From IMG/VR virus record IMGVR_UViG_3300012642_000011, positions 288,001 through 352,000 of that record: DNA of 64,000 bases, one strand, 5' to 3'. Position numbers and translations under genes: made by a program. Shown in pieces: positions 30,158 to 48,903 of this stretch. The stretch is from a virus. The notes under the pieces were generated by a model. That model searched no databases, was not told the DNA's origin, and saw nothing but the letters and a program-made list of their open reading frames with translations. The number at the start of each line of letters is the position of its first letter. Position 1 is the stretch's first letter.

Positions 30158-30248
30158 GATGATCTTTCTTACAAGCAATGGAAGTGTACTTCCACAGTAT
30201 AGCACAAAACTCCCCTCCGTGTACAAACGGAGGGGAGTTTTTAGCGGG

Positions 30249-32187: not shown

Positions 32188-32293
32188 GATCTTCCTTTTC
32201 TGTGAAGGCGGTGTTTAACTCTTGCTCTCATCATAAGCACAGGGACGCTCCAATGTCAACCACGGATCATCACGTCTTCTCTGCTCCCTGTTG

Positions 32294-32605
32294 TCAACCA
32301 CGGATCACAGGTGCAGGCGGGTGACCACTACCGCCGCCCTTACAATAGGACTCATGCCAAATGGGCAATGAGCAGTCATCTGCATGCAATCCGAACGTCT
32401 CTCCCCATGGTCTCATTCTATACGAAATGCCGAAACACAGATGGCACTGTGAAAGATCCTCATTGGGGCCTTCTGGTCCACGGTGTAACCCACGGGGACA
32501 CGGAATCTCACCGCGCCTGATCTTTTCCTGCAACTCCTGATACTCCTGCAACGCTCCGTTAGCGATGCGCTCACGTGCTGCTTTCCTGAATGCATTCTCG
32601 CTCAT
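32294..32605 (-). CDS. hypothetical protein
   Basis: 103-aa ORF. Confidence 0.4.
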   Translation of the reverse strand: MSENAFRKAARERIANGALQEYQELQEKIRRGEIPCPRGLHRGPEGPNEDLSQCHLCFGISYRMRPWGETFGLHADDCSLPIWHESYCKGGGSGHPPAPVIRG

Positions 32606-32750
32606 GGCATTCTCCTTCGATAGTAGTGCTTTATTTTACCAAGATAGATGCTATGTTGACCATTTGTTACAGCAGGGGGCAAGGGGACACAGAGTGATCT
32701 ACTAAGGATAGGCGGTAACACCCAATGTGTTACCGCCTATCTGTTGTGTT

Positions 32751-33287
32751 TCAGAGGGAGTCGTCAGCCACAGCCGAGAGGACGTAATTCTTGGACTCGG
32801 GATCAAGAAGCGTGCTCATCACGCCGAGGGTCTTCTTGGTCTTCTCGTACACCTCGCCCACGGTCACGTTGGTGTCCAGACCATTCACGTCCACGGCCAC
32901 TGCGAACGGGTTATCACTGCGCCAAACCTCCTCTTCGGTCGTGTGGCGATACACCTCCATGCCGGACAGTTCGGACAGGACAGCAACAGCCTTCTAGCCA
33001 ATCTCATCCTTGACAGTGATCTGGTTCTCATCACCGTCAAGGATCTCGATGACAGCATCCTTCACGCCGTCTGTCTCCAGACGCTCCACGTGACCCCCGT
33101 AGTCGAGGCACTCAACCCAGATCAGGGTAACCGACACGGCTCCCTCGTACTCGGAGTGAGAGAGAGCCAACTGCATGGGCGAAGTGATCCCCTGAAGGAA
33201 GAAAATGGGGAGGTTGTTGTCCTGTGTGCTCATCCACTCGGGGAGTTCAAGCATCGGGGTGTTCAGATCAAACAGATTGGTCATCAT
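32751..33287 (-). pseudogene. single reading frame split by one in-frame TAG (ORFs 32994..33287 and 32751..32960)
   Basis: The minus-strand translation ...KDEIG-TAG-KAVAVLSELSGMEVYRHTTEEE... runs straight through the stop. There is no RBS before the downstream ATG. Confidence 0.4.
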
Positions 33288-33479
33288 GTCCTTCTTTCAA
33301 AGTAATCGGTCTTGCTCTGTCATGGATGAATCTACCACAGGGGACGCTCCATGCGCAACCTGATACTCACATTATTTTTTTGCAGATAGTTCTCAACAAG
33401 ACAGAGGGGACACAGATAACACTACGGGGTGAGCATGGCATCTACCCGAACACCATGCTCACCCCGTGAAATCAGCAGT

Positions 33480-33710
33480 TCACTTGGCAAAATCCTCTGT
33501 CGCGTCAAGCGAAATGTCATCCGTGACAGGAACCTCTCCATCGATCTCCTCCCACGGGCAAGGACGTGGACGACGCACGATCCGCCACGCGCCCTCACGT
33601 GCGCCATCCTCTTCGAACTCACGCATGATTGCACTGACGGCATTGAGACCCATTCCCTCATACAAAATCTCGCCCGTTCGCGTTCGCTTGATCGCGTACT
33701 CATACGACAT
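33480..33710 (-). CDS. hypothetical protein
   Basis: 76-aa ORF with RBS AAGGAGAA. Confidence 0.45.
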   Translation of the reverse strand: MSYEYAIKRTRTGEILYEGMGLNAVSAIMREFEEDGAREGAWRIVRRPRPCPWEEIDGEVPVTDDISLDATEDFAK

Positions 33711-33827
33711 GATGATTCTCCTTCAAACACTGATTTCATTGTCTCTTGTCAGGATACACAGAAGGACGCTCCATTGTCAAGAATACATCAGGTCACGTTT
33801 TCCAGACATGGGGACACAGTGTTGCCA

Positions 33828-34271
33828 TCAAGCACCCAAGCCTACACCTGATTCTTTGGACAACTGTGTGATGAACCTCGTGATCTTCTTTGTTTCCAAG
33901 ATAGCAAGGCTCTGATCATTCACCACACCAAAAGTCTCCCCCACATCGTTGTAGTCCATGCTGTGCCAGACGCCCAAGGGGACGCTCGAAGAAGCAAACT
34001 CCTTGCCGACAACAAGAGAACCATCTCTTTCTGAAACCTTGTAGAGACCAAAAGGAGCGTGCAAATGATCCTCAGGGGAATCGTAGAACTCGAAGACGAA
34101 CTTGCGTGGCTTGCGGGAGAGTTTATCCAGTTCAGCCATGATGGCCTCAGCAACGCTCAGCAAGGAAAGCGTCCTCTGTACTCGATTGTACGCGTTGATT
34201 ACATCTGCATGAGAATTCTGAATTCCTAAACGCAGTTTTCTCACACCTGATGCAGTCACTTTTGTCGCCAT
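33828..34271 (-). CDS. hypothetical protein
   Basis: 147-aa ORF. Confidence 0.45.
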   Translation of the reverse strand: MATKVTASGVRKLRLGIQNSHADVINAYNRVQRTLSLLSVAEAIMAELDKLSRKPRKFVFEFYDSPEDHLHAPFGLYKVSERDGSLVVGKEFASSSVPLGVWHSMDYNDVGETFGVVNDQSLAILETKKITRFITQLSKESGVGLGA

Positions 34272-34453
34272 GATCTCTCTTCTCTCAGTCAGCAGATTGC
34301 TATATTCATCTTTGCAGATTGTATCAAAACATCCCCACGTCTAAGATTTAAAGATCATAAGAGGACGCTCCATTATTGAAGGTGTTGCACTCTATGCAGG
34401 TTCATGATACTGTGGAAGCAAGTTGATAACTCACACACCACAAGGAGACCGTC

Positions 34454-34768
34454 ATGAAGAAGATGACCGCAGAGCAGATGCAGGACTACCGAGAGAACTT
34501 CGGTGATGTCCCCAATAGCAGAATGGCATACGCCAATGAGTACGAGCGAGGGAAGTTCCTCAAGAAGCATGGGTTCAACGCTGATGCCAACGACGACATC
34601 TTCTCTGATACCAAGTACGTGTACTGTGTCTCTCACATTCGTCCTCACACTGTGGGCTGGTGTACTGTAGGCGCAGCTAACCAGTACCCTCTTGTTGCAC
34701 AGGATGATGTGTCTGCGCTTCAGGAAACGCGCAATCTCAACTTCCCCATCATGGGCGATAAGGACTGA
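34454..34768 (+). CDS. hypothetical protein, first copy of a tandem paralog pair
   Basis: MKKMTAEQMQDYRENFG...TKYVYCVSHIRPHTVGWCTV is paralogous to the next gene. RBS AAGGAGA. Confidence 0.5.
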   Translation: MKKMTAEQMQDYRENFGDVPNSRMAYANEYERGKFLKKHGFNADANDDIFSDTKYVYCVSHIRPHTVGWCTVGAANQYPLVAQDDVSALQETRNLNFPIMGDKD

Positions 34769-34863
34769 GCACCCTTCACAGGACGCTCCATACTCTTGCA
34801 CGCTGAGCGCTCATGTGATAGGCTAGAAGCACCACTTGAGAAGTAAACCACAAGGAGACCATC

Positions 34864-35199
34864 ATGGATCAGATGACCGTAGAGCAGATGCAGGACTACC
34901 GAGATAACTTCGGTCCTGTCTCCCTCAGCAGCAACGAGGGTGAACACCATCGCTTTAAGTACTTCAAGTCGCGCGATATGGACGTGTCCGCACCTGATAC
35001 GATCTTCCCTGACACCAAGTACGTGTACTGTGTCTCTCACATGAATCCTCACACCGTGGGTTGGTGTACTGTGCGTGTTGCCAATAAGTACCCCCTGCTC
35101 TCCACTGATCGTGAGAAGGCTATCGAGGAATGCCGCGACCTTGACTTCCCGCTGTTCGAGGACGTGGAGAAGATGCGTCGTCTGGCCCAGAAGCCCTGA
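34864..35199 (+). CDS. hypothetical protein, second copy of a tandem paralog pair
   Basis: MDQMTVEQMQDYRDNFG...TKYVYCVSHMNPHTVGWCTV. It has its own promoter TTGCAC-17-TAGGCT and RBS. Confidence 0.5.
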   Translation: MDQMTVEQMQDYRDNFGPVSLSSNEGEHHRFKYFKSRDMDVSAPDTIFPDTKYVYCVSHMNPHTVGWCTVRVANKYPLLSTDREKAIEECRDLDFPLFEDVEKMRRLAQKP

Positions 35200-35354
35200 T
35201 AATCAAGCCTGTGATGGCTACACAGCAAGGTCATATCATCCACCGATTCGATGGATTTTAAAAACTGATCACAGTGAGAGTTGCAATGCTTGCAGATGTG
35301 TAGTACACTTTAAATCGTAAGCACGAACCACTCATTGAAATCAAGGAGAATGCC

Positions 35355-35657
35355 ATGAAGATGAACACGAACACCAAGACCGTCAAGCAGACCACGCTCA
35401 TTTTCGAGATTGAGAGCGAGGATGACGTTGCGACCTTCAACGATGAGATCGAGAAGGCGCTTGAGCAGGCGTGGGATGATGATGCAGAGCAGAGCATCTA
35501 TGATGACGAGGTTATTGCGCCTAAGATCGAGCTTAGCCCCAACTGGAACGGAAACGCCGTCATTGGCTACAAGGGGGGCGTTATCGCCACCTTCGATCAC
35601 CTTCCCGTGACCATCGAGGTTCCGGCTCACAACACGTCGGCAACCAACGTCATGTGA
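35355..35657 (+). CDS. hypothetical protein, first copy of a second tandem paralog pair
   Basis: ...HTTLIFEIESEDD...PVTIEVPAHNTSATNVM, followed by a terminator at about 35662-35705. Confidence 0.5.
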   Translation: MKMNTNTKTVKQTTLIFEIESEDDVATFNDEIEKALEQAWDDDAEQSIYDDEVIAPKIELSPNWNGNAVIGYKGGVIATFDHLPVTIEVPAHNTSATNVM

Positions 35658-35661
35658 CCTG

Positions 35662-35705
35662 AAGAAGAGCAGGGGAGAGACCACGAGGCATCATTCGTGG
35701 TCTCT
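35662..35705 (+). terminator. intrinsic terminator
   Basis: aggggagagaccacga...cgtggtctctcccct followed by ttttttg. A paralogous copy follows the next gene at about 36083-36122. Confidence 0.6.
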
Positions 35706-35757
35706 CCCCTTTTTTGCTATAATAATCGTAAATCACACGTACAAGAAGGGAGATAAA

Positions 35758-36069
35758 ATGGAGATCACAGCAAGCAATGAGAACGTCAAGCACACTACTC
35801 TCACCTTCGTCCTCAACAGCGAGGAAGAGGTTGTCGTCTTCAACGATGTCGTGGAAGAGCATTTGATCGAGGCATGGGAAAACGGAGCGTTCAAGAGCGA
35901 AAACGAGGACGAGAGGCACGTTCCTCAGATCGAGAAGGAAGAGACAGATGATCTCAATGAATACAGTCTCCTGTACCACATTGACGTGCTGGACACCTTC
36001 ACTGGCGAGGACTTCCCGGTGACCATTCAGATTCCGGCTCACAACACGTCAGCAGTCAGCATCCTGTGA
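35758..36069 (+). CDS. hypothetical protein, second copy of a second tandem paralog pair
   Basis: ...HTTLTFVLNSEEE...PVTIQIPAHNTSAVSIL, followed by a near-identical terminator at about 36083-36122. Confidence 0.5.
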   Translation: MEITASNENVKHTTLTFVLNSEEEVVVFNDVVEEHLIEAWENGAFKSENEDERHVPQIEKEETDDLNEYSLLYHIDVLDTFTGEDFPVTIQIPAHNTSAVSIL

Positions 36070-36236
36070 CTTGAACAAGAAAAGGGGAGACCACGAGGTT
36101 AGCGTGCGTGGTCCCCCTTTCTATTTGCCTAGATCACGCAGAAAACGCACGAATAAATGAGGGGACACAAATCTTGTATCCTTTACCTTTTGATAGAATT
36201 ACATTATAGACGTTCCACTTTCTCAAAGGAGTATTC

Positions 36237-37001
36237 ATGGCGACAAAGACTGTCACCCTCTCAAGCAACCCCCTCAGGCATCCAAAAATGCCCAGCATGA
36301 TCCTTGGACCTGTAGCCTCCCGAGGTGGTCAGGCATGCTACGCGCCTGTAGCGTTCCTGCTCAAAGATGGGACGCTCTACACGTCTCTCAAGACAGGTAA
36401 AATCGATGAATGGAGTGATACTGAATGCTCATCATTCCGCTTCCTCAAGTACACTTACACCGATGATTTCACCCGCGAGGGGGATCAGTGGTACATGAAC
36501 GGCGAGCCGCTCTACGACGAAGAGGAATACCCTGTCATCCCCCATAGGGAGGGGCAGACCATTGCAGAGGTCACAGCCTTCATAGACACGCCTCTGACGG
36601 CAGATGAGGACGCTCCTACCACCAGCGCTATTGAAGCCATCTCTACGCCTACAGGAAGCGACGAAGGAGAGCAAGAGGTTGCTCAAGCGTCTCTGGACAC
36701 TACCGATTCCATGAACACAGGAGAGCACTATTTCAAGAACCTTGTGCGTTTACCAGATGGGGCTTGGTTTGGACTGTCCGAAACGTCAGGACGCTTGATG
36801 TGGGTCAGTGATGAGCAGTTGAAATCATTCTCCATTAATAGGGCTGCTAACGATGTCGTCTCCTATGTTAAAGATGGCGGCAAGTGGATACAAAGAGGCA
36901 AAGGCCCCATTGGAAAGCCATTCCCATGGGTTACCGCGCTCATTGTCCTCATGGTGGTAGCAGCGGCAGCATTCGGTTATTGGTGGTTCGTCATGAAGTG
37001 A
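36237..37001 (+). CDS. C-terminally membrane-anchored hypothetical protein
   Basis: The C-terminal TM reads WVTALIVLMVVAAAAFGYWWFV. RBS AAAGGAG. Confidence 0.5.
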   Translation: MATKTVTLSSNPLRHPKMPSMILGPVASRGGQACYAPVAFLLKDGTLYTSLKTGKIDEWSDTECSSFRFLKYTYTDDFTREGDQWYMNGEPLYDEEEYPVIPHREGQTIAEVTAFIDTPLTADEDAPTTSAIEAISTPTGSDEGEQEVAQASLDTTDSMNTGEHYFKNLVRLPDGAWFGLSETSGRLMWVSDEQLKSFSINRAANDVVSYVKDGGKWIQRGKGPIGKPFPWVTALIVLMVVAAAAFGYWWFVMK

Positions 37002-37082
37002 TAGGGACGCTCCATATCTTAATACCATCATCATCTCATATGCAATTGTTAGAGAAAACAGCATCATAGCGAGGTGGTGCAA

Positions 37083-38276
37083 ATGGGAATAGTGATCACA
37101 AAGACGGCCTACGGGAAGTCAAAAACGGATGGCACATGGGAGAGATGCCGCGCAAAGCCTGAGAACAGGGGTAAGGGGCGATGTCCGCACGGAGAGCATC
37201 AAGACCTCACCAAAGACGAGGAGCAAATCATCCATGTGCTCAACGATGAGATACTCATCAAGAAGTACGGCAGTACAGCAAGGTTGTCCAAGAAGGGGGA
37301 CGCTCCTTCCTCAACAGGCAAGAGGACGCAGCAATCAGGGCAAGCATCGTCCAAGCCTAGAAGGAAGCGCAGAGGACAAGGCAGCAGGAGAAACAAGATC
37401 GCCAAGGTGGGAAATAACTCCTTTGCTACCCATGAAGGGGGACGCTCCCTTACAAGAAAAGAATTCGATACATCAAGCCAGAAGGTGGCAGAATCTTTCC
37501 CCCAAGAGGATTGGAAAGCCATCAATAGTTTTTATTCAAAGTTCTCTGAAGTATCTGAAAAGGATGAAGCGAAGAAGAACTTTGATTCTGCGGTGAAGTC
37601 CGTTAAGGAATACATGAAGAGTGATGACCCTGATGCTGTGAAGATGAGGGAATTCTTTGGTGATGATGTGAACGTGGATGACGTGGCAGAGATACTGGTC
37701 TACCAAGTCAACGCTATGCGTTCTCCTATCACGTGGGAAACCAAGAGGCCGGGCACTATCAAGCGTTCTATAGCCACCACGGTGAACAACGACATGAACA
37801 AGGAGAGATACGTTGCCAGCGTCATGTTCTTTGGTGGAAGGTGCTGCTACTGCAATCAGCCCATGTCCAAACGAGAAGGTGACTCCAAGGCTACAGGCGA
37901 GCACATTACACCCGTGAACCCTTCTGGTAACGGAGTGATGGGAGGGACACGCTATGGCAACATGGCTCTTGCTTGTTCAGGGTGCAACAACGAGAGAGGC
38001 AACAAGGAGTTGAATGAGTGGATCAGCGAGACCTCAAGGCTTTCAGAGGAGAATAAGAAGGCTTCTATGGATCGTATTGACCAGTTCAGGAAGTTTGCTC
38101 TCTACAAGGAGTACACGCCGGAGCAGTCGAATGCCATCAGGGCGGCTATCAAGGAGACAGAGAAGTTCATGTATGAGAGAAGGAATCCTAATGGTTCGTA
38201 TGTGGACAATGGGATCAAGGAGATCAGGGATCACTTGAAGATCACGATTCATGATCTGAATGAGATGCTGAGGTGA
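37083..38276 (+). CDS. HNH endonuclease with a long basic N-terminal region
   Basis: CCYCNQ...GEHITPVNP...NMALACSGCNNERGNK is an HNH or His-Me finger. The ATG at 37083 is preceded by GAGGTGG. Its TGA stop overlaps the last copy of motif A. Confidence 0.6.
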   Translation: MGIVITKTAYGKSKTDGTWERCRAKPENRGKGRCPHGEHQDLTKDEEQIIHVLNDEILIKKYGSTARLSKKGDAPSSTGKRTQQSGQASSKPRRKRRGQGSRRNKIAKVGNNSFATHEGGRSLTRKEFDTSSQKVAESFPQEDWKAINSFYSKFSEVSEKDEAKKNFDSAVKSVKEYMKSDDPDAVKMREFFGDDVNVDDVAEILVYQVNAMRSPITWETKRPGTIKRSIATTVNNDMNKERYVASVMFFGGRCCYCNQPMSKREGDSKATGEHITPVNPSGNGVMGGTRYGNMALACSGCNNERGNKELNEWISETSRLSEENKKASMDRIDQFRKFALYKEYTPEQSNAIRAAIKETEKFMYERRNPNGSYVDNGIKEIRDHLKITIHDLNEMLR

Positions 38277-38409
38277 GGGGACACAGTTCTTAGTCGCCTA
38301 GAAGCAAGAAACCCTGTAAGCATTGCTTACAGGGTTTCTGTATTGATTAACTCGTGGTGGTGCTCACAAGGCTTAAAGAGATGGATGCTGGCGAGGATTT
38401 AGCACCCAC

Positions 38410-38489
38410 GTACCCCTAACGGGATTCGAACCCGTATGCCGAAGCGAGAGATTTTAAGTCTCCTGTGTATACCAATTCCACCATAGGGG
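38410..38489 (-). tRNA. tRNA-Leu (anticodon UAA) with an unusually short variable arm
   Basis: Minus-strand reading GCCCCTA-TGGTGGAATTGGTATACAC-AGGAGACTTAAAATCTCT-CGCTTCGGCATA-CGGGTTCGAATCCCGT-TAGGGGT-A. The D-arm is Leu-like (GGAATTGGTA). The anticodon loop CUUAAAA gives UAA. No CCA is encoded. Confidence 0.55.
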
Positions 38490-38757
38490 CAAAAGTGGGA
38501 TGTTGATCCTGCCTTGTACTTCGGCAGAACCAACAGCCCTTGCGGGTTGAGGGTAATGACTCCCCGTACCGCGATGAGCAAGATGGCCCATCAGCAACCT
38601 CCCGACCTTTCTCGGTAGTCCGCACTGTACATTGCTTTGAAAGAGCATGCACGGTCAGTGCCAACCGCCTCCCTGACGTGTGAGGAAACGCCTGCAAGGT
38701 CATTACTCCTTACAGGACATTGGTGAATCGTCATTATCGATTCCAACCAATGCTTTG

Positions 38758-38830
38758 TACTCCCAACGGGATTCGAACCCGTGTCGTCGCCGTGAAAGGG
38801 CGATGTCCTAGGCCACTAGACGATGGGAGC
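38758..38830 (-). tRNA. tRNA-Glu (anticodon UUC)
   Basis: Minus-strand GCTCCCATCGTCTAGTGGCCTAGGACATCGCCCTTTCACGGCGACGACACGGGTTCGAATCCCGTTGGGAGTA closely resembles bacterial tRNA-Glu. Confidence 0.7.
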
Positions 38831-39056
38831 GTGGCCCCTGACTGCACTATGAACCCCATGTGTTCTCACGGAATCCACCATGCATTCAGGAATACTATCA
38901 GGCAAGTCCCTACCTACCACATCGTCCTGATGACCTTTTTCAAGTCATAGCGGACAGGGAACTCTTTACCAAGTTGATGTTCGGCCCAAAATTCTTTTCA
39001 TTATTCTGTTGTTCTGATTCTAGTGTATCACACTCGGATCAGTTATGCAAGTCCAT

Positions 39057-39112
39057 TATAGTGTTGGTTGCCAGACGGCGGAACCCTTTGCCATCTGGCA
39101 ACCAACACTATA
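39057..39112. repeat. perfect 19-bp inverted repeat (hairpin) with an 18-nt loop
   Basis: tatagtgttggttgccaga - cggcggaaccctttgcca - tctggcaaccaacactata. Confidence 0.6.
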
Positions 39113-39178
39113 CCAGAAGGTTTGACTACCAGAGGGCAGTGCTTTGCTCAAAGCCCGTCTGGTGTCCTACCCTCCCAA

Positions 39179-39231
39179 GGTTTGATTACCATGCTGTACC
39201 CTGAGAATAATACCGCATGGTAATCAAAACT
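39179..39231. repeat. perfect 15-bp inverted repeat (hairpin) with a 20-nt loop, preceded by a direct repeat aaggtttgaYtacc
   Basis: gtttgattaccatgc - tgtaccctgagaataatacc - gcatggtaatcaaac. A direct repeat lies at about 39116-39130 and 39176-39190. Confidence 0.55.
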
Positions 39232-39232
39232 C

Positions 39233-39305
39233 GCTCCCCCACCTGGATTCGAACCAGGAACCTACGCATTAACAGTGCGGCGCTCTGCCGTTGAGCTATA
39301 GGGGA
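39233..39305 (-). tRNA. tRNA-Asn (anticodon GUU)
   Basis: Minus-strand TCCCCTATAGCTCAACGGCAGAGCGCCGCACTGTTAATGCGTAGGTTCCTGGTTCGAATCCAGGTGGGGGAG. The anticodon loop CUGUUAA is as in bacterial tRNA-Asn. Confidence 0.7.
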
Positions 39306-39309
39306 ATGT

Positions 39310-39460
39310 CTGGCTTATACAGTCATTTAACTCACTTGCCCCCGAGTGAGCACCAGAAAATCTCTGTTCAGTTACCAATCTCCAACTTCTTATATGAACT
39401 ACGGCGATGCTAAAGACAACGCCGTTTCTGGCTTCACAGGAATATGCTTAATCAGACCTT
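39310..39460 (-). ncRNA. putative TnpB guide (omega or right-end RNA) region
   Basis: By analogy with characterised TnpB systems, the guide RNA is transcribed from the 3' end of tnpB into the right end. This region holds two hairpins. No direct sequence evidence of expression exists. Confidence 0.25.
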
Positions 39461-40753
39461 ATACAGATCATTCTTAAGTCTAACAATCCCTCCACCAGCA
39501 CAACCCTCCGTTCCAGAGGTGACCAAACTCAAGTACCTTTCACCAAGAATAACCATATTCCTCGCAGCATGAGAATCACGATCCTCACTAAAACCACAAG
39601 AAGAACACAAGAAAACACTCATATTAACATCATGCTTCGTCAAGACACCACAAGGAGAACACCACGCAGTAGTAGCCACCCACTTAGGCAGCATTACCGC
39701 ATTCTCATGATTTTTCAAGCGCGCTTTAACACGACCAAGCACACCATGATGGATCTTCTTAGAACCACGTGCTTTCGAATTCTTGTTCTTCCACGATACT
39801 AACATTTCATCTTGGAAGAACACTACACTATCCTTAGTTAACCTGCTTACTAATTGATTAGCAAACTCATTCTTCAAATGATCAGTATTCTGATACTCTC
39901 TCTTGATCTTAGCCAAAGTCTTGCGATAACTGTTGGAGTTCTTTACCTGACGAGACAGTTTTCTCTGCAATCTCGCCATCCTCTCCTGTTTGCCAGTAAT
40001 AATCGCGTTAACAACCTCACCATTATCAAGAGTTAAAGCATTCTTTACACCCATGTCCACACCGATTTTATTCGTAGGTGCAACCTTAACTGCTCGTGGC
40101 TGATAAGTGGTCACTACTAAATGATAACCATCAGCACGATACACTAATTTAGCATTCGCAAACTCAAGACTATCAGCACACAATTGCTCATAACCGCGAA
40201 CACGTAATCTGCCGGGAATGTTCTGAACACGGATTTTAGTCATCATCCCTTTTGAATTAGGAATCAGATCATAAGTCACGCCATATTGTTTGAGATTGAT
40301 AGAATCGACATTGCGAACAAACTTTAGTTTTCCAATCTTGCGACCATTCTTCTTCAATGCAGATAATGATTTGCGATCATTGCTCAATTGAGTTATCACG
40401 CTTTGCTGCATTTGGCTTCCAAGATGTTTGATTGCTCTTTTCTCAGTATCTCCGTTGGGGACTTTTACCTCAACTTCACCTTTGAGTTCTTTGATGTAGT
40501 CAAGATCAAAACGTTCTGCTGCAAGGGCAGCATTGCGAATCCATTTAGCCTCATGGAAAATACTTTTAATAGCCTCTTTTTGCTGTTTATTCATGGAAGA
40601 TTGTACGATTTTTAGGTCATACACTTTGACAATCATGGTTTTTCTGCGTTCACGAGTTGCTTTTCCTGCTTCTTTGATTCTCTTGTTTTTGGCAAGTCTG
40701 GCTTCTTCTGTGAGGGTTTTTGGTGCGCTTGTGCGTTGTGCCATGATTGTCAC
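39452..40753 (-). CDS. tnpB: TnpB (OrfB), RuvC-like RNA-guided endonuclease of the IS200/IS605 family
   Basis: A 433-aa protein. RuvC-I reads IGVDMGVKN. The C-terminal zinc finger is CSPCG...CSSCG, followed by an RuvC-III-like DRDSHAARNM. Confidence 0.8.
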   Translation of the reverse strand: MTIMAQRTSAPKTLTEEARLAKNKRIKEAGKATRERRKTMIVKVYDLKIVQSSMNKQQKEAIKSIFHEAKWIRNAALAAERFDLDYIKELKGEVEVKVPNGDTEKRAIKHLGSQMQQSVITQLSNDRKSLSALKKNGRKIGKLKFVRNVDSINLKQYGVTYDLIPNSKGMMTKIRVQNIPGRLRVRGYEQLCADSLEFANAKLVYRADGYHLVVTTYQPRAVKVAPTNKIGVDMGVKNALTLDNGEVVNAIITGKQERMARLQRKLSRQVKNSNSYRKTLAKIKREYQNTDHLKNEFANQLVSRLTKDSVVFFQDEMLVSWKNKNSKARGSKKIHHGVLGRVKARLKNHENAVMLPKWVATTAWCSPCGVLTKHDVNMSVFLCSSCGFSEDRDSHAARNMVILGERYLSLVTSGTEGCAGGGIVRLKNDLYKV

Positions 40754-40805
40754 CTCCTTGATATAATAGGCTATCTTATCTTATTATATCAAAAGGTTGG
40801 TTGTG

Positions 40806-41198
40806 ATGGGTGCTGTTCAGAATTTGCGTTATCATTTTGTTTTTGCTACGAAGTTTCGTAGGGGGTGTTTTAGTGGTATTGAGGGTGATGTGGTGAGGGC
40901 GATTGAGTATGCTGTGTCGAAGTCTTCATGCAAGTTAGAGCGTGTTGCTGTTGAAGATGGGGATCATGTTCATTTGGTAGTGAGGATGTCTGGGACTTAT
41001 TCTGTTTCTGGTTTAGTGAACCGTTTGAAGTCTTTGAGTTCTCATCATTTGTGGGAGATGCAGGGGGATCATTTGAGAAGATTTTATTGGGGTGGTCGTC
41101 ATTATTTGTGGAGTGGTGGTTATTATGCTGCTACTATTGGCGATGTGAGTGCTGATCATGTTGATAAGTACCTGAAAAAGCAAGGCCACTGGAAATAA
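40806..41198 (+). CDS. tnpA: TnpA, HuH Y1 transposase (IS200-like)
   Basis: LRYHFVFATKFRR (HuH and the YH..V motif) and GDHVHLVV (HxH) are present, with the C-terminal Y in GGYYAATIGDVS. It is divergent from tnpB. The track ORF starts at a TTG at 40797. Confidence 0.8.
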   Translation: MGAVQNLRYHFVFATKFRRGCFSGIEGDVVRAIEYAVSKSSCKLERVAVEDGDHVHLVVRMSGTYSVSGLVNRLKSLSSHHLWEMQGDHLRRFYWGGRHYLWSGGYYAATIGDVSADHVDKYLKKQGHWK

Positions 41199-41305
41199 TA
41201 CACTTGCGCTTACATCAGCGAGGCTGAAGACCTCGCCGCTTTACGCGCTTTCGTGTAACGGTATCAATGAAAACATCAAGCGTTTTTGGAATTAACGATC
41301 TCATA

Positions 41306-42085
41306 TTAAGAGATCTCTTCGAGATGGATCAATGGTCTTGAATATCCCTCTACCTTGTGATCCATATCAACACTGATAACCCTGAACTTTGTTCCTCTGG
41401 CAAGGGTAACCTCTTCCTCATAAGATCCATCCTCATTCCACTTCGCTGATTGAGTAGTATCAATCTTCATCAGAACACCAGAGATATAATCAGGAGCATT
41501 CATACCAGAGAACTCATGAGATATGTCTTCAGATGTAGAAGTAGACACGAACTCATTGAAGACAACCTCGTTACCAGCCTCCCCGATATGCTTCTTCACC
41601 CATTCTACAGGATTCATGTCAGTCTTGCGAGGAAGATCGGAATTTGCTGTCTTCACCCCACGAAAAAGAGTATGATTTGATTTTCTACGAGGGCACCTCG
41701 CCAACGCTTTATCCATGTTATCAATCACTTTTCTTTGATCATCAGATAAACTGCCCACATCATCACGTCTCAAAGCATCATTGATCTCACCATGCTCAAA
41801 GGAACCATACGATTCCCAAGCATCCCTCTCATCATCAGAAAGAGAATTTCTCCATGTTGATACAAGAGAAGAATGATTTGTAGAAGACAAGGACGACACA
41901 GAAGAGAATGATCTCTCCAAAACTTCCTCAGAAAAAGAATGTGCCTCCTTCATGTTCTCAAAATGCTGTACTGAACCCAAGGGGCATTCAATCTTATCTG
42001 CCCTGCATCTGTTCATCTCGCCAGTTTTGCTGCTCACGTGATACTTGACCATTATCCCTCCCCATGTTTTCAGATGAACACACAT
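41306..42085 (-). CDS. mono-ADP-ribosyltransferase of the R-S-E class (C3, Alt or Mod-like toxin fold)
   Basis: Arg motif HTLFRGV, STS motif VSTSTS and ExE motif EEEVTLARG appear in the canonical order and spacing. Confidence 0.55.
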   Translation of the reverse strand: MCVHLKTWGGIMVKYHVSSKTGEMNRCRADKIECPLGSVQHFENMKEAHSFSEEVLERSFSSVSSLSSTNHSSLVSTWRNSLSDDERDAWESYGSFEHGEINDALRRDDVGSLSDDQRKVIDNMDKALARCPRRKSNHTLFRGVKTANSDLPRKTDMNPVEWVKKHIGEAGNEVVFNEFVSTSTSEDISHEFSGMNAPDYISGVLMKIDTTQSAKWNEDGSYEEEVTLARGTKFRVISVDMDHKVEGYSRPLIHLEEIS

Positions 42086-42195
42086 GATGATTCTCTAATC
42101 TCACACACGATCTAAACTATTGATGCCAATCAACCCCGATCCAGCATGGACTAGGAAATCATTTCTGCAAAAGAAGCGAAGTTGTGTATACGCAA

Positions 42196-42232
42196 AAGAG
42201 GGTGAGAATTAGATTCTCACCCTCTTTCACCT
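42196..42232 (-). terminator. intrinsic terminator after nrdE
   Basis: aaagagggtgagaat-tag-attctcaccctcttt, with a T-tract on the minus strand. Confidence 0.5.
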
Positions 42233-42278
42233 TATTATTCAATTGTCATCAAGTTTACATCTATCTATTTAAAATAGA

Positions 42279-45200
42279 TCAGACCTGACATGACTCACAG
42301 TAAGAGTTTGCATCCTCAACCTCTGTTCCTGCAAGTGTGGAAGGACGTACACGGACGTAGTAAATCGTCTTGATACCCTTCCTCCATGCATAAATGTATG
42401 CCTTATTGAGATCTCTGGTTGTGGCCTCATCAGTCACAAAGAGAGTCAAAGAAGCACCCTGATCAATGTGAGGTGTAGCAGCAGCATACACATCAATGAT
42501 GGCTTCAGTTCCTACCTTGTATGCATCAGCGTAGTAAGGCAGAGTTTCCTCACTCAAGTATGGCTGTGGGTAGAAGACTCTACCAATCTTTCCTTCCTTC
42601 CTTGCCTCAATGTTCTGAGCAACAGGATGGATAGAAGAAGTAGAATAAGAAATGTAACTGATGCTTCCTGTTGGCGCAACAGCGATCAGGTACGCATTAT
42701 ATAGACCATCTCTCATCACATCTTCCTTCAACTGCTTCCAGTCTTCAGCAGTAGGCACATGCATACTTGTCTTCTTCAGAAGTTCTTTGACCTTCTCAGT
42801 CTTGACTTCTGAGTACTGACCGTTTGTGTACATGTCGAAGAACTCACCTGTAGCATACTTTGACTTCTCAAACTCGAAGAATGTCTTTCCCTTCTCCTTT
42901 GCCATCTTGTTGGATGCCTTCATAGCGTAGTAACGTACTGACATGAAGTACAAGTTGGTGAAGTCTACTGCTTCCTCAGATGCGTAATAGATGTGCTCAC
43001 GTGCAAAGAATCCGTGAAGGTTCATTGCACCCAGACCAATAGCATGACTCAACTGGTTTCCACGCTCAATGGATGGAGCAGATGAGATGTTGGACAGTTC
43101 TGACACTACTGTGAGCGCACGTACTGCTGTTTCCACTGACTGACCAAAATCAGGTGAATCAAACATGTTGGCAACATTGAGAGAGGCGAGGTTACAGGAG
43201 ATGTCTCTTCCAACGTGGTCATAGTTTCCATCTTCATTAAATGTTGACGGAGTTGAGACCTGAAGAATTTCAGAACAGTTTCCTGTGACAATGCCATTGA
43301 AGATAATGGAGTGACCATCTTCTACAGTGACATCATATACATCCTCTACACCGTCAGGAACAATGTCTCTGACAACAGCCTTGTAGCGGTGTGTGCTGTA
43401 TGGTGTTCTGTTCTTATCCCATACCAATGACTTTTCCTGCCATGCTTTCTGCTGCCTGTCTGTCCAGTTCAGAAGTTCATAGAGAGCAACGACTTCAGCC
43501 TGTGCAGATGCCTTCAGATTCCACACTTCTGCTACATCATACTCCTTCTCTCCGCCCTTGCTATCAGGAAGGGTATCCTTACCTGCCTTGCGGGAGAGGT
43601 ACAGCCTAGTGAACACGTTCATGTTCAATAGCATCCTCTGAACTTCAAGGAGAAGTTCCCTATTTGTGGAAGTCAGTTCAATGGTTGCAGACTTTGATGT
43701 TCCTGTAATGCAACCATCTGCCTGATAGAGACCCGAAAGGTAGCCAACCTGTGTTGACCTGTCTCCTCTGAGTACGAAGTCAGGGACAATCTCCTTATTA
43801 TCCTTAGTGAAATCATTGTTTTTAAGGATTTCCGCAAGGATTGTAGAAGAAAGCGTCCATTTATTGTACTTCTCGCTTTCAGTGAAAGTAGGAATACGTG
43901 TGGACTCATCAACGAGACCAATGGCATCATCACTGTAGAAGATGTTCTCCACGATCTTATTGATCTTGCTGATCTCTGACTTATTCTTTGGCTTGATTGT
44001 CAGTCTTGCAGATGGTGAGTACTTAGAGTCCTTGTCCTCTACAAGAGAACCCTCACCTGCAATGAATCCTGCAATGAATGCAAGATCAGGCTTGTGAACG
44101 TGTCCGTATGCACCCTCTGATGGTTGAATGAGAACTTTGTCACCTGGCTTGACCTCACCCAAGGGGATCTTCACAAGGATAGGATCATCATTCTCGTCCT
44201 TACGCTCCACGTAGATCTTATGGTACTCTGTTGCTCTTAACTCATACCCCTCAATAGTGGACATTTTGAACACAGGAGTATTCTCTGCTGTCTTGAACAT
44301 CTTGGTTGATGTAACACTGGCTACTCCGTCTGCATCAAGATCCATAGTACGTGCTCTCTCATCAACGATGACGTTGAAGGAATTTTGTGATTCAAAGAGG
44401 TCTCCTGCACGGACGTTTCCTGAATCTGTAAGCAACTGTGTCTCTGCTGTGACGCAGAGGTTGGAATGTGTAACCTTTCCATCCAACTGTGACTGCGCGT
44501 TTACGTTGTCCTCAAACATGAGGTAGGGGTATCCTGACTCAAACTGTAGCTCAGCAATGGTCTGGAAGAGTGAACGTGCTTTAATCTTTTGCTTACGGAT
44601 CTTGGGGTTATCTACCATATCGTAGTACTCTTCCGTGATATCGATGTCACTGAAAGGCTTACCGTAGAATTTCTCAACATCATAAGGTGAGAACAGATAC
44701 ATGTCATCATTGCGCTTAGCAAGTTCAAAAGTGATGTCAGGAATGACAATACCAATGGAAAGTGTCTTAATCCTGATCTTCTCATCTGCGTTCTCACGCT
44801 TAGTGTCAAGGAATCTCATGATGTCAGGGTGGTGTGCGTTCAAGTACACTGCACCTGCTCCCTGACGTGCTCCCAACTGGTTAGCATAGGAGAATGAATC
44901 CTCAAGAAGTTTCATGACAGGAATGATTCCAGAGGACTGTCCCTCAATGTTCTTAATAGGAGCACCCTGCTCACGAACGTTGGTGAGGTTCAAAGCAACA
45001 CCGCCACCACGCTTAGACAACTGCAAAGCGTTGGTAATGTTTCTTGCAATGGATTCAAGGTTGTCTTCTGTTCTCAAGAGGAAGCAGTTGTGAGCAATGT
45101 ACCCTCTTGCTACATAGGTATGATTGTTCTCTACTTCAAGATTGTAAACAGTAGTAGTTTTTTCTTCGAATGAAGATGCCTTTACTTTATACATTACGTA

Positions 45201-46859
45201 TCCATCAATGATCCTTGCAAATCTAAACTGATCAGAGGCAAGTACACCATCAAATCTATCTGCATTTTTATCAATGTATTTAATGAAGTCAACATTGTTT
45301 TCGCTGATAGCAGGAATCTTCAAGGTGGATGTAGGTGACCCTGAAGCACTGAAGAAGGTTCTCTCATACGGAAGAAGTCCAATCCTCAAAGCAGCAGTTC
45401 TTAATTGAGAAATAATCTCAGGGTTGGACAAAGAGACTTCTGCGCTTCTGTCAAGGACTGTTCCATCCCCTCTGAAGCATCCTACAAGCATACCTTTGAG
45501 GAATTCATCAGAAGCATCAAGTAGAAGAGTGTTCAACCTCTTCTTATTAAATCCAGTTCCGATAAGGGAAACAAAGAATTCTCCCATAATTTGAGACCAA
45601 GCAGCCACATTCGTTGAGCCATCTACGTTTTCTCTCACAGTAGGCGTAAAGCCGAAGATTCTTTCAATCAGATTGACGGTATCCTTGATAAAGATATCTT
45701 CTTTTGATCCGAAAGTGAATCGAATTCCCTTATTTACCCCATTCGTGTAATGAGCATATCCCTCAGAAATGTAGTATCCTACAAGTCGTCCGAAATCTTC
45801 GTTCACAGAGATGGTGTTTTTCAAAGAATATGAGTTCTTTAAAACATTAGACCCCTTCTTTTTATTGTTTTTCTTGTCGATTGATCCAATGTAAACAAGA
45901 TCGTTTTCTACATCAACATCAAGAGTCCTACCCCATGTAGATGGCGTTTTAACGTAATCTGAAATCTTCAGTTCTGAAACAGATTCGGAACTTCTTCTTG
46001 GAACAGACAGAGCAATGAAATCACCAGGAAGAACTTCTCCCGCTGCAATCCACTTTACATTCTCAGTACTTCCATCACCATCAATTAAGGTGTCTTGAGA
46101 TGAGTTTTTTCTGTAAACAAGGACAGGGTGCTCTTTAGTAGAAGAGAACTTTTCTTTTTGTCCAATAACAGTAAGAGAAACTATTCCGTCACTTTCCTCA
46201 CGAGACATAACTCCTGTTACCTTTTGCACGCTGCCATCGTGTGTGTAAACTGAATCCCCCTCAACAATGTTGGAGATTGTAATTTCACCATGGGGTGTAG
46301 AAATTGGTGTATCGCCTTCGAAACACGACACCATCTCACCACGCTGCTTCTTTCCTGCATTCAAGAAGGTTGGAGTGGCAGGCTGGAAACGTCCGCCCAT
46401 CATCTCATCAAGCAAGTGCTCTGCAGCATCCTCGTCACCATCAGCAAGGTAAAGAGCAACAACGACAACCCTATCCTCATAGCGTTCAAGATATCTCTTG
46501 CCGTCGAATGTCTTCAGAGTATAGGATGTGTAGTACTTGAATGCTCCCATGAAGGATGGGAAACGGAACTTGTAAGCGTATGCCTTCTTGTAAAGTGACT
46601 TCACGAAATCGAAGTCATACTTGTCGAAGAGTTCCTTCTCGTAGTAGTCATTCTTGAAGAGGTAATCCAGTTTCTCTTCAAGATCGTGGAAGAACACTGT
46701 GTTCTCATTGACATGGTGGAGGAAGAATGCTCTGGCTGCCTCTTTGTCCTTATGCAACTGAAGTTTTCCATCTTCACCCATCAGTTTCACCTGGGCGTTC
46801 AACTCATGGTAATCCACGTTCTCTTCTTTGTCGTGGGTTGTTCCATTGAATTCAGACAT
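42279..46859 (-). CDS. nrdE: class Ib ribonucleotide reductase large subunit NrdE, interrupted by two inteins (1526-aa precursor, about 720-aa extein)
   Basis: The extein carries RNR blocks (TPTFLNAG...RGEMVS|CFLL, ...HSNL|CSEILQV and a C-terminal YCESCQV). The N-terminus is NrdE-like, without an ATP cone. Confidence 0.85.
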   Translation of the reverse strand: MSEFNGTTHDKEENVDYHELNAQVKLMGEDGKLQLHKDKEAARAFFLHHVNENTVFFHDLEEKLDYLFKNDYYEKELFDKYDFDFVKSLYKKAYAYKFRFPSFMGAFKYYTSYTLKTFDGKRYLERYEDRVVVVALYLADGDEDAAEHLLDEMMGGRFQPATPTFLNAGKKQRGEMVSCFEGDTPISTPHGEITISNIVEGDSVYTHDGSVQKVTGVMSREESDGIVSLTVIGQKEKFSSTKEHPVLVYRKNSSQDTLIDGDGSTENVKWIAAGEVLPGDFIALSVPRRSSESVSELKISDYVKTPSTWGRTLDVDVENDLVYIGSIDKKNNKKKGSNVLKNSYSLKNTISVNEDFGRLVGYYISEGYAHYTNGVNKGIRFTFGSKEDIFIKDTVNLIERIFGFTPTVRENVDGSTNVAAWSQIMGEFFVSLIGTGFNKKRLNTLLLDASDEFLKGMLVGCFRGDGTVLDRSAEVSLSNPEIISQLRTAALRIGLLPYERTFFSASGSPTSTLKIPAISENNVDFIKYIDKNADRFDGVLASDQFRFARIIDGYVMYKVKASSFEEKTTTVYNLEVENNHTYVARGYIAHNCFLLRTEDNLESIARNITNALQLSKRGGGVALNLTNVREQGAPIKNIEGQSSGIIPVMKLLEDSFSYANQLGARQGAGAVYLNAHHPDIMRFLDTKRENADEKIRIKTLSIGIVIPDITFELAKRNDDMYLFSPYDVEKFYGKPFSDIDITEEYYDMVDNPKIRKQKIKARSLFQTIAELQFESGYPYLMFEDNVNAQSQLDGKVTHSNLCVTAETQLLTDSGNVRAGDLFESQNSFNVIVDERARTMDLDADGVASVTSTKMFKTAENTPVFKMSTIEGYELRATEYHKIYVERKDENDDPILVKIPLGEVKPGDKVLIQPSEGAYGHVHKPDLAFIAGFIAGEGSLVEDKDSKYSPSARLTIKPKNKSEISKINKIVENIFYSDDAIGLVDESTRIPTFTESEKYNKWTLSSTILAEILKNNDFTKDNKEIVPDFVLRGDRSTQVGYLSGLYQADGCITGTSKSATIELTSTNRELLLEVQRMLLNMNVFTRLYLSRKAGKDTLPDSKGGEKEYDVAEVWNLKASAQAEVVALYELLNWTDRQQKAWQEKSLVWDKNRTPYSTHRYKAVVRDIVPDGVEDVYDVTVEDGHSIIFNGIVTGNCSEILQVSTPSTFNEDGNYDHVGRDISCNLASLNVANMFDSPDFGQSVETAVRALTVVSELSNISSAPSIERGNQLSHAIGLGAMNLHGFFAREHIYYASEEAVDFTNLYFMSVRYYAMKASNKMAKEKGKTFFEFEKSKYATGEFFDMYTNGQYSEVKTEKVKELLKKTSMHVPTAEDWKQLKEDVMRDGLYNAYLIAVAPTGSISYISYSTSSIHPVAQNIEARKEGKIGRVFYPQPYLSEETLPYYADAYKVGTEAIIDVYAAATPHIDQGASLTLFVTDEATTRDLNKAYIYAWRKGIKTIYYVRVRPSTLAGTEVEDANSYCESCQV
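43278..44456 (-). mobile_element. intein 2 in NrdE (about 393 aa, LAGLIDADG type)
   Basis: Inserted between THSNL and CSEILQ. It starts CVTAETQLL and ends IVTGN, with the unusual penultimate Gly. The blocks are LAFIAGFIAGEGSL and VGYLSGLYQADGC. Confidence 0.55.
45087..46325 (-). mobile_element. intein 1 in NrdE (about 413 aa, LAGLIDADG homing-endonuclease type)
   Basis: Inserted between RGEMVS and CFLL. It starts CFEGDTPIS and ends YIAHN. The LAGLIDADG-like blocks are GRLVGYYISEGYA and LKGMLVGCFRGDG. Confidence 0.6.
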
Positions 46860-47169
46860 ACTTGTCCTCCTTGTGTCGTGTTTTAAAGTCTATGGGCATT
46901 GGTAATCAATGCTTGGGGTAAAAAATGACCCACGAAAACAGCACTTACGTAGGTCACACATGAGCATCATCGACATGATGCCGTACTTTTTCTTTTTATT
47001 TTGTTGTCGGAGTATATTCTAACAAGAGTAGTTTAAAAATATTCCTCTCATAACTTCCTATATCACCATTACCTGTTAAGCAACCATTGATTTCATGCTG
47101 TTCTTCCATCATGGATAATTTCGATGTGAGATAATACACATGAATTTTCTCTCAACGAACAATTAAAAT

Positions 47170-48903
47170 TCAGGGTCTGTCTTGATGAAAAGGAAACGTA
47201 AAACGTATCTTACCACAATCATAAACTCTCTGAATCCCATTGATATGAGCCAACTGTGATTCAGTTAAAGATTCATCATAAAAAAGCGAAGGATCATTCT
47301 TAAACCTCTTCTTCCTGAAACCGAACTTATGCTTCCTCTCATTCCTGAAGATGTAGTAATAATCAGGAGGCAATATCTTATCCTGAATCCATCCTGTTTT
47401 CTCATACAAACCACCATCAGAAAAAGATAAATCAGCAAACGTCGTTAGCATAGAATTCGGATGCTCTTTCATGAATGCTTTGACTATTTTAGAATGACCA
47501 CCAATGACATGTTCAGACGTAGAATACCTCTCCAATATGTAACCATTCTTTGCCTTCTTGAAGGATGCAATTGCTACAAGAACGCCTGATCCCTTGTCTT
47601 TCAGACCCCAATGTTCAGAAGCACTCACTGATCCTTGAATGTGATTACTCTCATGGAATGCTGATGCTTCCCACCTGTCCACTATGCTGACATTCGTATT
47701 CCTTGCATAAATTCTTCTCTGATTATTAATTCCCATCACATGCTGAACATGCTTCTTGACAATCTCTTTCTTATTATTCCAATCATCCTCCCACACAGTT
47801 AACAATCTGATCCCTTGATCATGGCATGCCCAATATTTTTCAGAGTGCTTTTTCTTCCCCGAGAATTTTTCCTGATGCCAATAAATACCATTAAATTCAA
47901 TGGCTACATTGATCTCTGGAAGATAGATGTCAAGTTCCTTTCCGTTGAGAACTTTCCTATCATTAGTGATGATTCTGCCATCATAGACATCCATAATGAA
48001 TTCAATGAATTCCTTCTCCCGCTTAGATGTCCCTGCTTCATCACATTTACGACACCCTTCCTTGCCAGCAAAGTGAGCATCAAAGGACTGATAGAATGTG
48101 CCATGATCATCTATTGTGCAGATGATAGGAGAAGATGTTTTAACATTGAAGGAACTCAAGTCAACCTTGGAGTAATCATACCTGCCAGATCCATGAGATT
48201 GTATCTTGTTGTCAAACTTGGCAGTATCATATGGGGCATATTTATTACATTTTCTACAGCCGTTGTTTCCTCTTAAGTGAGAGTTGGCTTCAATCCTATA
48301 GGATTCACGGTGCTCATTACAGATGACAGTGATTTTCTCATGAAGGTTCTTGAATTGCATCACTTTGGAGTAATCAAATCGATCTCCATGTTTCTCTTTT
48401 GCTCTTGTGACATATTCTTGTACAGAGATCACACTTTGCCCATTGCATTCAGAGCAACCGTTCATTCCTCGTAAATGATTTTGAGCATTCTGGGTGAACT
48501 CGCCATGTTCTCTGCAAAGAACAGTGATCTGGTCAGCCATTTTGGTAAATCTCGTCTGGGAGTAATCAAATTTATCCCCATGGATTTCTTTTGCCTTTTG
48601 AATATACTCTTCAGGAGACATTCTTCTTGTTGCCATAGCGCATTCTTTGCACCCTGTACCACCTTTGCTTCCCAAATGTGTGTTAGGGTAAGTAGAGAAT
48701 TCACCATGATCAGGACAGATGATGATCACTTTTTCTTTGAGTTTAGTGTACTGCGTTGGAGAGTAGTCAAACCTGTCCCCATGAATACTTTTTGCTCTTT
48801 GAATGAAGTCCTCTGTATTCCTGATTCTCATTCTATAATGTCTCCTTGAGCAAAAGTAAGATCCTGTGAACATGAGTTGACCATGTTCACAGGATCTTAC
48901 CAA
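47170..48903 (-). CDS. freestanding homing-endonuclease-like protein with N-terminal tandem zinc-ribbon repeats and a C-terminal Vsr or DUF559-like PD-(D/E)XK nuclease domain
   Basis: At least four repeats of about 60 aa have the form IHGDRFDYS...C.EHGEF...HL.G..GC..C. The C-terminus ELDIYLPEINVAIEFNGIYWH resembles Vsr or DUF559. The gene sits between nrdF and nrdE. Confidence 0.5.
   Translation of the reverse strand: MVRSCEHGQLMFTGSYFCSRRHYRMRIRNTEDFIQRAKSIHGDRFDYSPTQYTKLKEKVIIICPDHGEFSTYPNTHLGSKGGTGCKECAMATRRMSPEEYIQKAKEIHGDKFDYSQTRFTKMADQITVLCREHGEFTQNAQNHLRGMNGCSECNGQSVISVQEYVTRAKEKHGDRFDYSKVMQFKNLHEKITVICNEHRESYRIEANSHLRGNNGCRKCNKYAPYDTAKFDNKIQSHGSGRYDYSKVDLSSFNVKTSSPIICTIDDHGTFYQSFDAHFAGKEGCRKCDEAGTSKREKEFIEFIMDVYDGRIITNDRKVLNGKELDIYLPEINVAIEFNGIYWHQEKFSGKKKHSEKYWACHDQGIRLLTVWEDDWNNKKEIVKKHVQHVMGINNQRRIYARNTNVSIVDRWEASAFHESNHIQGSVSASEHWGLKDKGSGVLVAIASFKKAKNGYILERYSTSEHVIGGHSKIVKAFMKEHPNSMLTTFADLSFSDGGLYEKTGWIQDKILPPDYYYIFRNERKHKFGFRKKRFKNDPSLFYDESLTESQLAHINGIQRVYDCGKIRFTFPFHQDRP

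Follow-up and report, generated by a model that had tools for sequence, protein, structure and literature searches.

The stretch of DNA analysed here, which we call the window, comprises 64,000 nucleotides of a viral genome (positions 288,001 to 352,000 of the IMG/VR record IMGVR_UViG_3300012642_000011) and contains three tRNA genes followed by a full-length insertion sequence (IS) of the IS200/IS605 family. At this point the GC content of the DNA falls by some ten points, which divides the window into a GC-rich left arm and a GC-poor right arm. Comparison with independent assemblies of the same phage indicates that the two arms do not meet in this way in the native genome, and that the boundary is either an artefact or a private rearrangement through a 133-bp repeat at one end of the IS.

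tRNA genes, an IS200/IS605 element and a step in GC content

A single-change-point likelihood scan of the window locates the fall in GC at 39270-39530, where the log-likelihood exceeds that of a model without a change by about 314, and the same scan finds no second comparable change point within either arm. GC amounts to 51.6% on the left of the step and to about 41.4-41.5% on its right; in windows of 1 kb the means are 51.7% (standard deviation 2.4) over 1-38000 and 41.5% (standard deviation 2.5) over 41000-64000, and the ranges, 0.472-0.574 on the left and 0.371-0.465 on the right, do not overlap. The step is confirmed as a real property of the window sequence, far beyond chance, and it lies at the tRNA/IS605 site where the initial annotation had put it, although its size had been overstated there (54% to 37%, that is 17 points instead of about 10). 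The difference is mostly one of synonymous positions: GC at third codon positions (GC3) differs by 24 points, being 66% in the left arm and 42% in the right, and first positions stand at 55% and 48%, second positions at 39% and 35%. AGA accounts for 0.46 of the arginine codons in the right arm and for 0.12 in the left, and AAA for 0.40 and 0.10 of the lysine codons, in agreement with the earlier description of the right side as rich in AGA and AAA. Other codon preferences are common to both arms: GAT is used more than GAC, CCT is favoured for proline, and ATA, CTA and CGG are avoided.

The three tRNA genes that had been noticed at the boundary were called by ARAGORN and by Rfam, both agreeing (Table 1). 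The long hairpins reported beside them are also real, as their z-scores show, but they are not specific to the boundary, similar ones being found along both arms; a role for them as att or integration structures was considered and rejected, since equivalents are scattered through both arms. Perfect intergenic hairpins with stems of 14-20 bp and loops of 3-12 nt are common in both compartments (929-976, 11961-12008, 21136-21183 and 52976-53024 are examples from the two arms), and they look like a genome-wide style of terminator, far longer than the usual intrinsic terminators.

That an IS200/IS605 element stands at the boundary, as the initial annotation had it, is borne out by profile matches of both its proteins. 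TnpB matches PF01385 (5.9e-12), PF07282 (9.3e-08) and phrog_506 (8e-37), and TnpA matches PF01797 with E = 2.8e-26 over 121 of 121 profile positions; its translation shows the HVH motif and the C-terminal tyrosine of GGYYA. The repeat search of the window reported no terminal inverted repeat of the IS. A hairpin, GCGAGGTCTTCAGCCTCGC, lies about 20 nt inside the left end (z = -2.9), and a weaker one, GGCGTTG...CATCGCC, about 10 nt inside the right end (z = -1.8). The left end abuts the tetranucleotide TTAC, which is the target of IS608. TTAC is also present at the equivalent position of a second, internally deleted copy of the element (referred to below as mini-IS605), which lies at another locus in the tRNA array, and at that of an empty site in the contig L004 (L numbers denote loci retrieved from other assemblies); a comparison of the three places the insertion 3' of TTAC, without a target-site duplication. 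Presence of the IS differs between strains, with L004 empty and L003, L015 and others filled. The occurrence of empty and filled sites, together with the second copy, marks the element as one that is apparently mobile, and all of the defining features of the IS200/IS605 family that were tested are present. A 10-nt indel (CATTGATACC) beside TTAC, at 41259-41270 of the window and 1022-1030 of L004, likewise separates the strains with a filled site from the one with the empty site. No omega-RNA family was found by Rfam at the gathering threshold.

Among known elements, IS605 and IS608 of Helicobacter pylori and ISDra2 of Deinococcus radiodurans have the same combination of a Y1 HUH TnpA and a zinc-ribbon TnpB, with subterminal hairpins in place of terminal inverted repeats and a presence that varies between strains; the divergent orientation of tnpA and tnpB is that of IS605. 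Unlike these, the element of the window lives in a very large uncultured phage genome, and its TnpA and TnpB fit the family models only moderately, at the E-values for PF01797 and PF01385 given above.

Table 1. Features of the window, in order of position
Feature	Position	Strand	Remarks
High-GC compartment (left arm)	1-38289		51.6% GC, GC3 ~66%; ~59 mostly small ORFan genes on both strands
Hairpin, perfect, 15 bp, terminator-like	38307-38339		3' of HNH gene; z = -7.0
tRNA-Leu (anticodon taa)	38410-38490	-	ARAGORN and Rfam; last gene of the phage tRNA array
tRNA-Glu (anticodon ttc)	38757-38830	-	ARAGORN and Rfam
Hairpin, near-perfect, 23 bp	39057-39112		Between tRNA-Glu and tRNA-Asn; z = -8.5
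tRNA-Asn (anticodon gtt)	39233-39305	-	ARAGORN and Rfam
IS200/IS605-family element, full-length	39394-41254	-	1861 bp, 41.6% GC; tnpA and tnpB divergent; subterminal hairpins at both ends
Exact repeat, 133 bp	39394-39526	-	IS right end and last 75 nt of tnpB; common to full IS and mini-IS605
tnpB, 430 aa	39452-40744	-	OrfB_IS605 domain and Cas12f1-like zinc ribbon
tnpA, 130 aa, Y1 HUH transposase	40806-41198 (alternative start 40797)	+	PF01797
TTAC target tetranucleotide	41255-41258	-	Abuts IS left end
Low-GC compartment (right arm)	41255-64000		41.4% GC, GC3 ~42%; nearly all genes on minus strand; replication and nucleotide metabolism
ADP-ribosyltransferase (ART) gene	41306-42085	-	Abuts AAA-ATPase gene region in L004
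NrdE, ribonucleotide reductase large subunit, 1526 aa	42279-46859	-	Two inteins

Two native contexts of the 133-bp repeat

Look-ups with exact proteins yielded 37 loci from metagenome assemblies in JGI, ENA and Logan, 99.9-100% identical to the window; the samples are presumably human-skin metagenomes, an unverified reading of the accession names. A literature search with the sample accessions gave no match, and the jumbo phages of skin that publications mention could not be connected with this genome. These loci show the repeat at 39394-39526 in two native contexts, of which it is the sole common sequence. Seven assemblies have contigs that run across position 39394 coming from tnpB (L003/L025, L015/L024, L016, L017, L019, L020/L026 and L027), and all of them leave the window sequence exactly there, to run on not into tRNA genes but through an AAA-ATPase gene, a signal-peptidase-like gene and a PIF1-type helicase gene in DNA of 38-42% GC. 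Contigs from five assemblies (L005, L006, L007, L008 and L010) cross position 39526 from the tRNA side; all part from the window at that position and continue into the left end of the IS, which makes up the rest of mini-IS605, and past it come another 16 tRNA genes, of unchanged strand, and then DNA of 47-52% GC. In neither native context is there a step at the IS copy, the GC content being continuous across both. All twelve informative crossings of the junction, from about nine assemblies, are native, and the arrangement of the window is absent among the 17 contigs that encode the exact TnpB, every one of which falls into a native or a truncated context group. Scans of collections of viral and metagenome contigs for the junction peculiar to the window gave no match either, but these negatives carry no weight, since the right end of the IS, taken as a positive control, was equally missing from the viral, metagenome and genome collections, which lack this phage.

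The window thus follows the tRNA-array context as far as 39394-39526, where the GC change point also falls, and the tnpB/ART context from there on; a distance of 88 bp separates tRNA-Asn from the discontinuity, which is inside the end of the IS605 element and not at a tRNA. Three other contigs go no further than the repeat, L009 having its end at 39526, L001 its start at 39400 and L002 its end at 39426. L009 and L001 come from one sample (JGI 3300012594) and share exactly 127 nt, an overlap whose length is the signature of a fork in a de Bruijn graph with k = 127.

The native tRNA array is made up of 19 genes on one strand (L005 12174-18319, continuing window 38410-39305), and the three tRNA genes of the window are its last three; in the other assemblies the DNA around the array is of uniform GC content. 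The hairpin between tRNA-Glu and tRNA-Asn is found there in identical form, and mini-IS605 sits between tRNA-Asn and tRNA-Leu(caa). With a length of about 200 bp, mini-IS605 consists of the 133-bp right end, 100% identical to that of the full copy, and of about 56-70 bp of the left end, which is 96% identical to window 41203-41258, and it apparently arose from the resident IS by the simple loss of an internal part. In keeping both ends, flanked by TTAC and without a transposase, it resembles the palindrome-associated, MITE-like (miniature inverted-repeat transposable element) non-autonomous derivatives of IS200/IS605, although those families are amplified and here a single copy was seen. One tRNA of the array was called as tRNA-His with the anticodon ATG, which is unusual and possibly a miscall. 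At the other locus there is no IS in L004, where the ART gene is followed at once by the AAA-ATPase gene region; because this empty site joins the two directly, their adjacency is ancestral, that is, older than the IS.

Both contexts, and with them both arms, belong to one contig. The left-arm locus L005 and the right-arm loci L015, L024 and L033 are pieces of a single contig of 332,269 bp (ENA ERZ27289831, k141_11150), which holds the left arm at 44743-65507 (L005) and the right arm at 263619-301039 (L015 being 269081-290049). Over 39394-64000 its sequence equals that of the window (100% identity), and over 26237-39526 the two differ by one single-nucleotide polymorphism (SNP; 99.99%). The two copies of the repeat lie on opposite strands of this contig, at about 52.3 kb and 269.6 kb and hence about 217 kb apart, the copy of L005 being on the plus and that of L015 on the minus strand. 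Its name points to assembly at k = 141, which exceeds the length of the repeat and would give direct k-mer support for its junctions. A second contig, of 437,576 bp, also carries markers of both arms, namely TnpB, the HNH protein and NrdE together with a 254-aa protein of the left arm. The arms were found together in at least eight samples. Where coverage is recorded it is similar for the two, with values of 9.3 and of 7.9 and 7.4 in ERZ1031066 and of 13.35 and 13.53 in ERZ1030804. The high-GC compartment extends over at least 57 kb (with L029) and the low-GC compartment over at least 37 kb. Both arms belong to one very large uncultured phage, of at least 332 kb and with gene affinities that are actinophage-like.

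The single SNP is private to the window, which has A at 32996 where five other assemblies have G, and is its only difference from them over 13 kb. It introduces an early stop codon, by which a 177-aa gene (32751-33284, minus strand) is broken into two open reading frames (ORFs); neither of the two possible products of the truncated gene is on record.

Origin of the junction

The explanation that we favour, with a probability of about 0.65, is that the GC step is a non-native adjacency produced when the assembler mis-joined two parts of the phage genome through the 133-bp IS605 repeat. What is seen directly is the repeat with its two native contexts and its two opposite orientations, an empty site, and contigs that break off at the repeat; that the switch took place in silico rather than in the phage is what we infer from the comparison of assembled contigs. 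The phage genome has two long-standing compositional compartments, of about 52% and 41% GC, with the full-length IS605 between the ART and AAA-ATPase genes of the low-GC compartment and, in inverted orientation, mini-IS605 in the 19-tRNA array of the high-GC compartment. The walk that gave the window would have entered the repeat from the side of the tRNA array and left it on the side of tnpB. Where k is below 133, this wrong walk through a de Bruijn graph would be as valid as the native one; because such a k permits both walks, a mis-join is to be expected wherever paired or long reads leave the repeat unresolved, and because the walk swaps contexts inside the repeat, DNA of 52% GC is set against DNA of 41% GC. 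The repeat is longer than the k-mers usually employed and some assemblies broke there, while native resolution was reached in what is presumably a k = 141 assembly and in several SPAdes-style ones; in other respects the window is nearly identical to contigs with the native arrangement. This is also the pattern of known mis-assemblies and inversions at IS copies, where the junction lies in an exact repeat below the typical resolution of reads or k-mers, and where other assemblies are interrupted or have taken the alternative path. What is unlike the usual case is that the flanks differ by 10 GC points within one genome and so mimic a boundary of horizontal transfer.

Several points weigh against an assembler's error. 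The join is judged from assembled contigs, so that a lack of read support cannot be shown, and some further similar places among the look-up results were not compared base by base. The private nonsense SNP at 32996 and the absence of the source contig from the collection searched imply that the window comes from another sample, which could hold a genuinely rearranged strain. The repeats are inverted, which makes the arrangement of the window equal to the product of an inversion by homologous recombination, and the phage encodes RecA and a RecG-like helicase; phages of this size have active recombination functions.

These points lead to the alternative that survives best, a real inversion isomer, in which homologous recombination between the inverted 133-bp copies flipped about 217 kb of the genome in the phage population of the sample. 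TnpB-induced breaks may have been a stimulus, and the event would have split the 19-tRNA array into 3 + 16 genes and brought the two compartments side by side. The orientations of the arms in the window are exactly those that an inversion between the opposite-strand copies of the 332-kb contig would produce, the window is a distinct sequence with a SNP of its own, and the phage carries, besides the two recombination proteins, an intact TnpB; the fork that assemblers left open in one sample possibly reflects a mixture of isomers. Even so, we regard an inversion as possible but rather unlikely: the arrangement recurs in no other assembly, all informative crossings being native, and with one SNP in about 38 kb compared, a fixed inversion of 217 kb would have to be extremely recent. 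It would also part three tRNAs from the rest of the array, and an exact repeat of 133 bp is a typical site of short-read mis-joins.

A much less probable origin is a chimera, or a natural junction, of two genomes or replicons that share an IS605 copy, one of them a high-GC actinophage, the other a low-GC phage or bacterium with no relation to it. The gaps of 10 points in GC and of 24 points in GC3 are what such a chimera would predict, as is the restriction of the motifs GGGGACACA and GGGACGCTCC to one side, and the best phage matches of the RecG-like and ClpB-like proteins are non-actinobacterial. However, both arms are physically linked on the 332,269-bp contig, apparently assembled with k = 141, and markers of both are present on the 437,576-bp contig; the arms co-occur in at least eight samples, at similar coverage where it is recorded; and they have codon quirks and long-stem hairpins in common. 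A taxonomic comparison of the two halves, which the initial annotation had recommended, revealed no split, both arms having actinophage affinities: the left-arm RNA ligase has its closest counterparts, at 38-41% identity, in phages of Arthrobacter and Microbacterium with genomes of about 190 kb, and the NrdF of the low-GC arm shares 69% identity with that of phages of Gordonia, Mycobacterium and Arthrobacter. In tblastn searches the RecG-like and ClpB-like proteins matched mainly bacterial contamination or huge uncultured phages and gave no taxonomic signal, and the 254-aa and 386-aa proteins had no phage match by tblastn.

Least probable of all is a recently acquired island integrated at a tRNA gene, for which the tRNA genes and the mobile element at the GC step might seem to speak, but the ORFs flanking the tRNAs encode an HNH endonuclease, TnpB, TnpA and an ADP-ribosyltransferase and include no tyrosine or serine recombinase, the break lies in the IS end and not at a tRNA, the native array is flanked on both sides by DNA of about 50% GC in five assemblies, and the low-GC side holds core replication functions rather than cargo. 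The att-like duplication of tRNA 3' ends that would be expected of such an island was looked for within the window and not found, the sole repeat family there (D19) being the three tRNAs themselves.

Of the three origins put forward in the initial annotation, namely a recent acquisition at a tRNA hot spot, a junction of two replicons and an assembly chimera, the last comes closest to the truth, in that the join is non-native; what does not hold is the involvement of two organisms, since the join is intragenomic and runs through the 133-bp repeat, be it by an assembler or by inversion. The same arrangement in independent assemblies, which had been proposed as the finding that would exclude a chimera, is shown by none of the informative public contigs. 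A boundary that looks like textbook horizontal transfer, with a GC step, tRNA genes and a mobile element, can arise from an IS repeat of 133 bp, and comparison with independent assemblies can expose a non-native join even without reads. The interval 39394-39526 is best treated as an unverified join, which affects the size of the genome, the order of its genes, the annotation of the tRNA array and the calling of islands.

The biology beyond the boundary is of greater interest: an active-looking IS605 with TnpB, its mini derivative, and a base composition that is bimodal within a single phage genome. This bimodality is real. It is conceivable, though doubtful, that the genome stably keeps two codon-usage compartments under a translational or temporal partition. 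GC-rich, host-like genes would then use host tRNAs, and AT-rich core genes would depend on those of the phage; the array holds tRNAs with UNN anticodons for GAA, AAA, AGA, ACA, GUA, GCA, UCA and UUA, and within their synonym sets these codons, all of which end in A, are used 2-4 times more often in the low-GC arm than in the other. Phage homologues of Lsr2, an actinobacterial protein that silences AT-rich DNA, might shield the AT-rich core genes from silencing of the Lsr2 type by the host. To our knowledge, the 24-point gap in GC3 is far above the differences known between early and late genes. A difference in codon usage between early and late phage genes is described in one published study (PMC5683454). 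If functional, the bimodality would bear on how large phages with a low-GC core exploit high-GC hosts.

Gene content of the two arms and relatives

In the left arm, recognisable functions are limited to an RNA ligase, a metallophosphoesterase, two Lsr2-like proteins, a GmrSD_C-like protein and an HNH endonuclease. The Lsr2-like genes lie at 29171-29872 and 30623-31045 on the minus strand, one of them with three matched Lsr2 stretches, and they are notable in a phage with a core of 41% GC. Two tandem pairs of paralogous small genes, at 34437-35199 (104 and 111 aa) and 35355-36090 (100 and 103 aa), are 76-86% identical in DNA, ribosome-binding sites included.

The motif system that the initial annotation had described upstream of the boundary is indeed confined to that side. 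GGGGACACA occurs in 28 copies against 0.5 expected and GGGACGCTCC in 23 against 0.04 expected, between 94 and 38285 of the window and all on the plus strand. This polarity is independent of the orientation of the genes, and many of the copies adjoin long intergenic hairpins. A function as promoters of plus-strand genes is unsupported, about two thirds of the predicted genes of the left arm (some 39 of 59) being on the minus strand.

No nucleotide-level relative was found among deposited phages, where a megablast search with 30000-48000 returned tRNA-sized matches only. The Arthrobacter and Microbacterium phages of about 190 kb mentioned above include Talia1610 and A3Wally, whose tRNA-Asn is 86-88% identical to that of the window and whose RNA ligase is encoded near tRNAs; the genome studied here differs from theirs in being far larger, in its bimodal composition and in having no nucleotide-level similarity to any deposited phage. 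One further Microbacterium phage record matches in tRNA-Asn (87.5%) and RNA ligase (37.5%) only, as these relatives do.

The right arm encodes, in addition to NrdE and the ADP-ribosyltransferase, an HNH/DUF723 homing endonuclease, NrdF, the RecG-like helicase, a ClpB-like ATPase and part of a penicillin-binding protein. The latter, at the right end of the window (62932-64000), is bifunctional, with 829 aa and transglycosylase, transpeptidase and PASTA domains. RecA and DnaB are encoded next to this end, in a region covered by L033 117-7941, and a signal-peptidase-like gene and the PIF1 helicase gene lie past the IS. Four contigs from different assemblies (L034-L037) all start at window position 60936, which is 64 nt upstream of a gene for a protein of 313 aa; this suggests that another assembly-breaking repeat or a strain-variable point lies at about 60936.

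The HNH/DUF723 gene (47170-48903), between nrdE and nrdF, varies between strains, encoding 553, 684 or 491 aa when L016 and L022 are compared, and within it lie three direct repeats of about 53 nt. In L022 the next genes are those of a serine recombinase and a TnpB-like protein, a pair of the IS607 type. Because of this pair and of the variability of the HNH/DUF723 gene, the interval between nrdE and nrdF is regarded as a hot spot for mobile elements.

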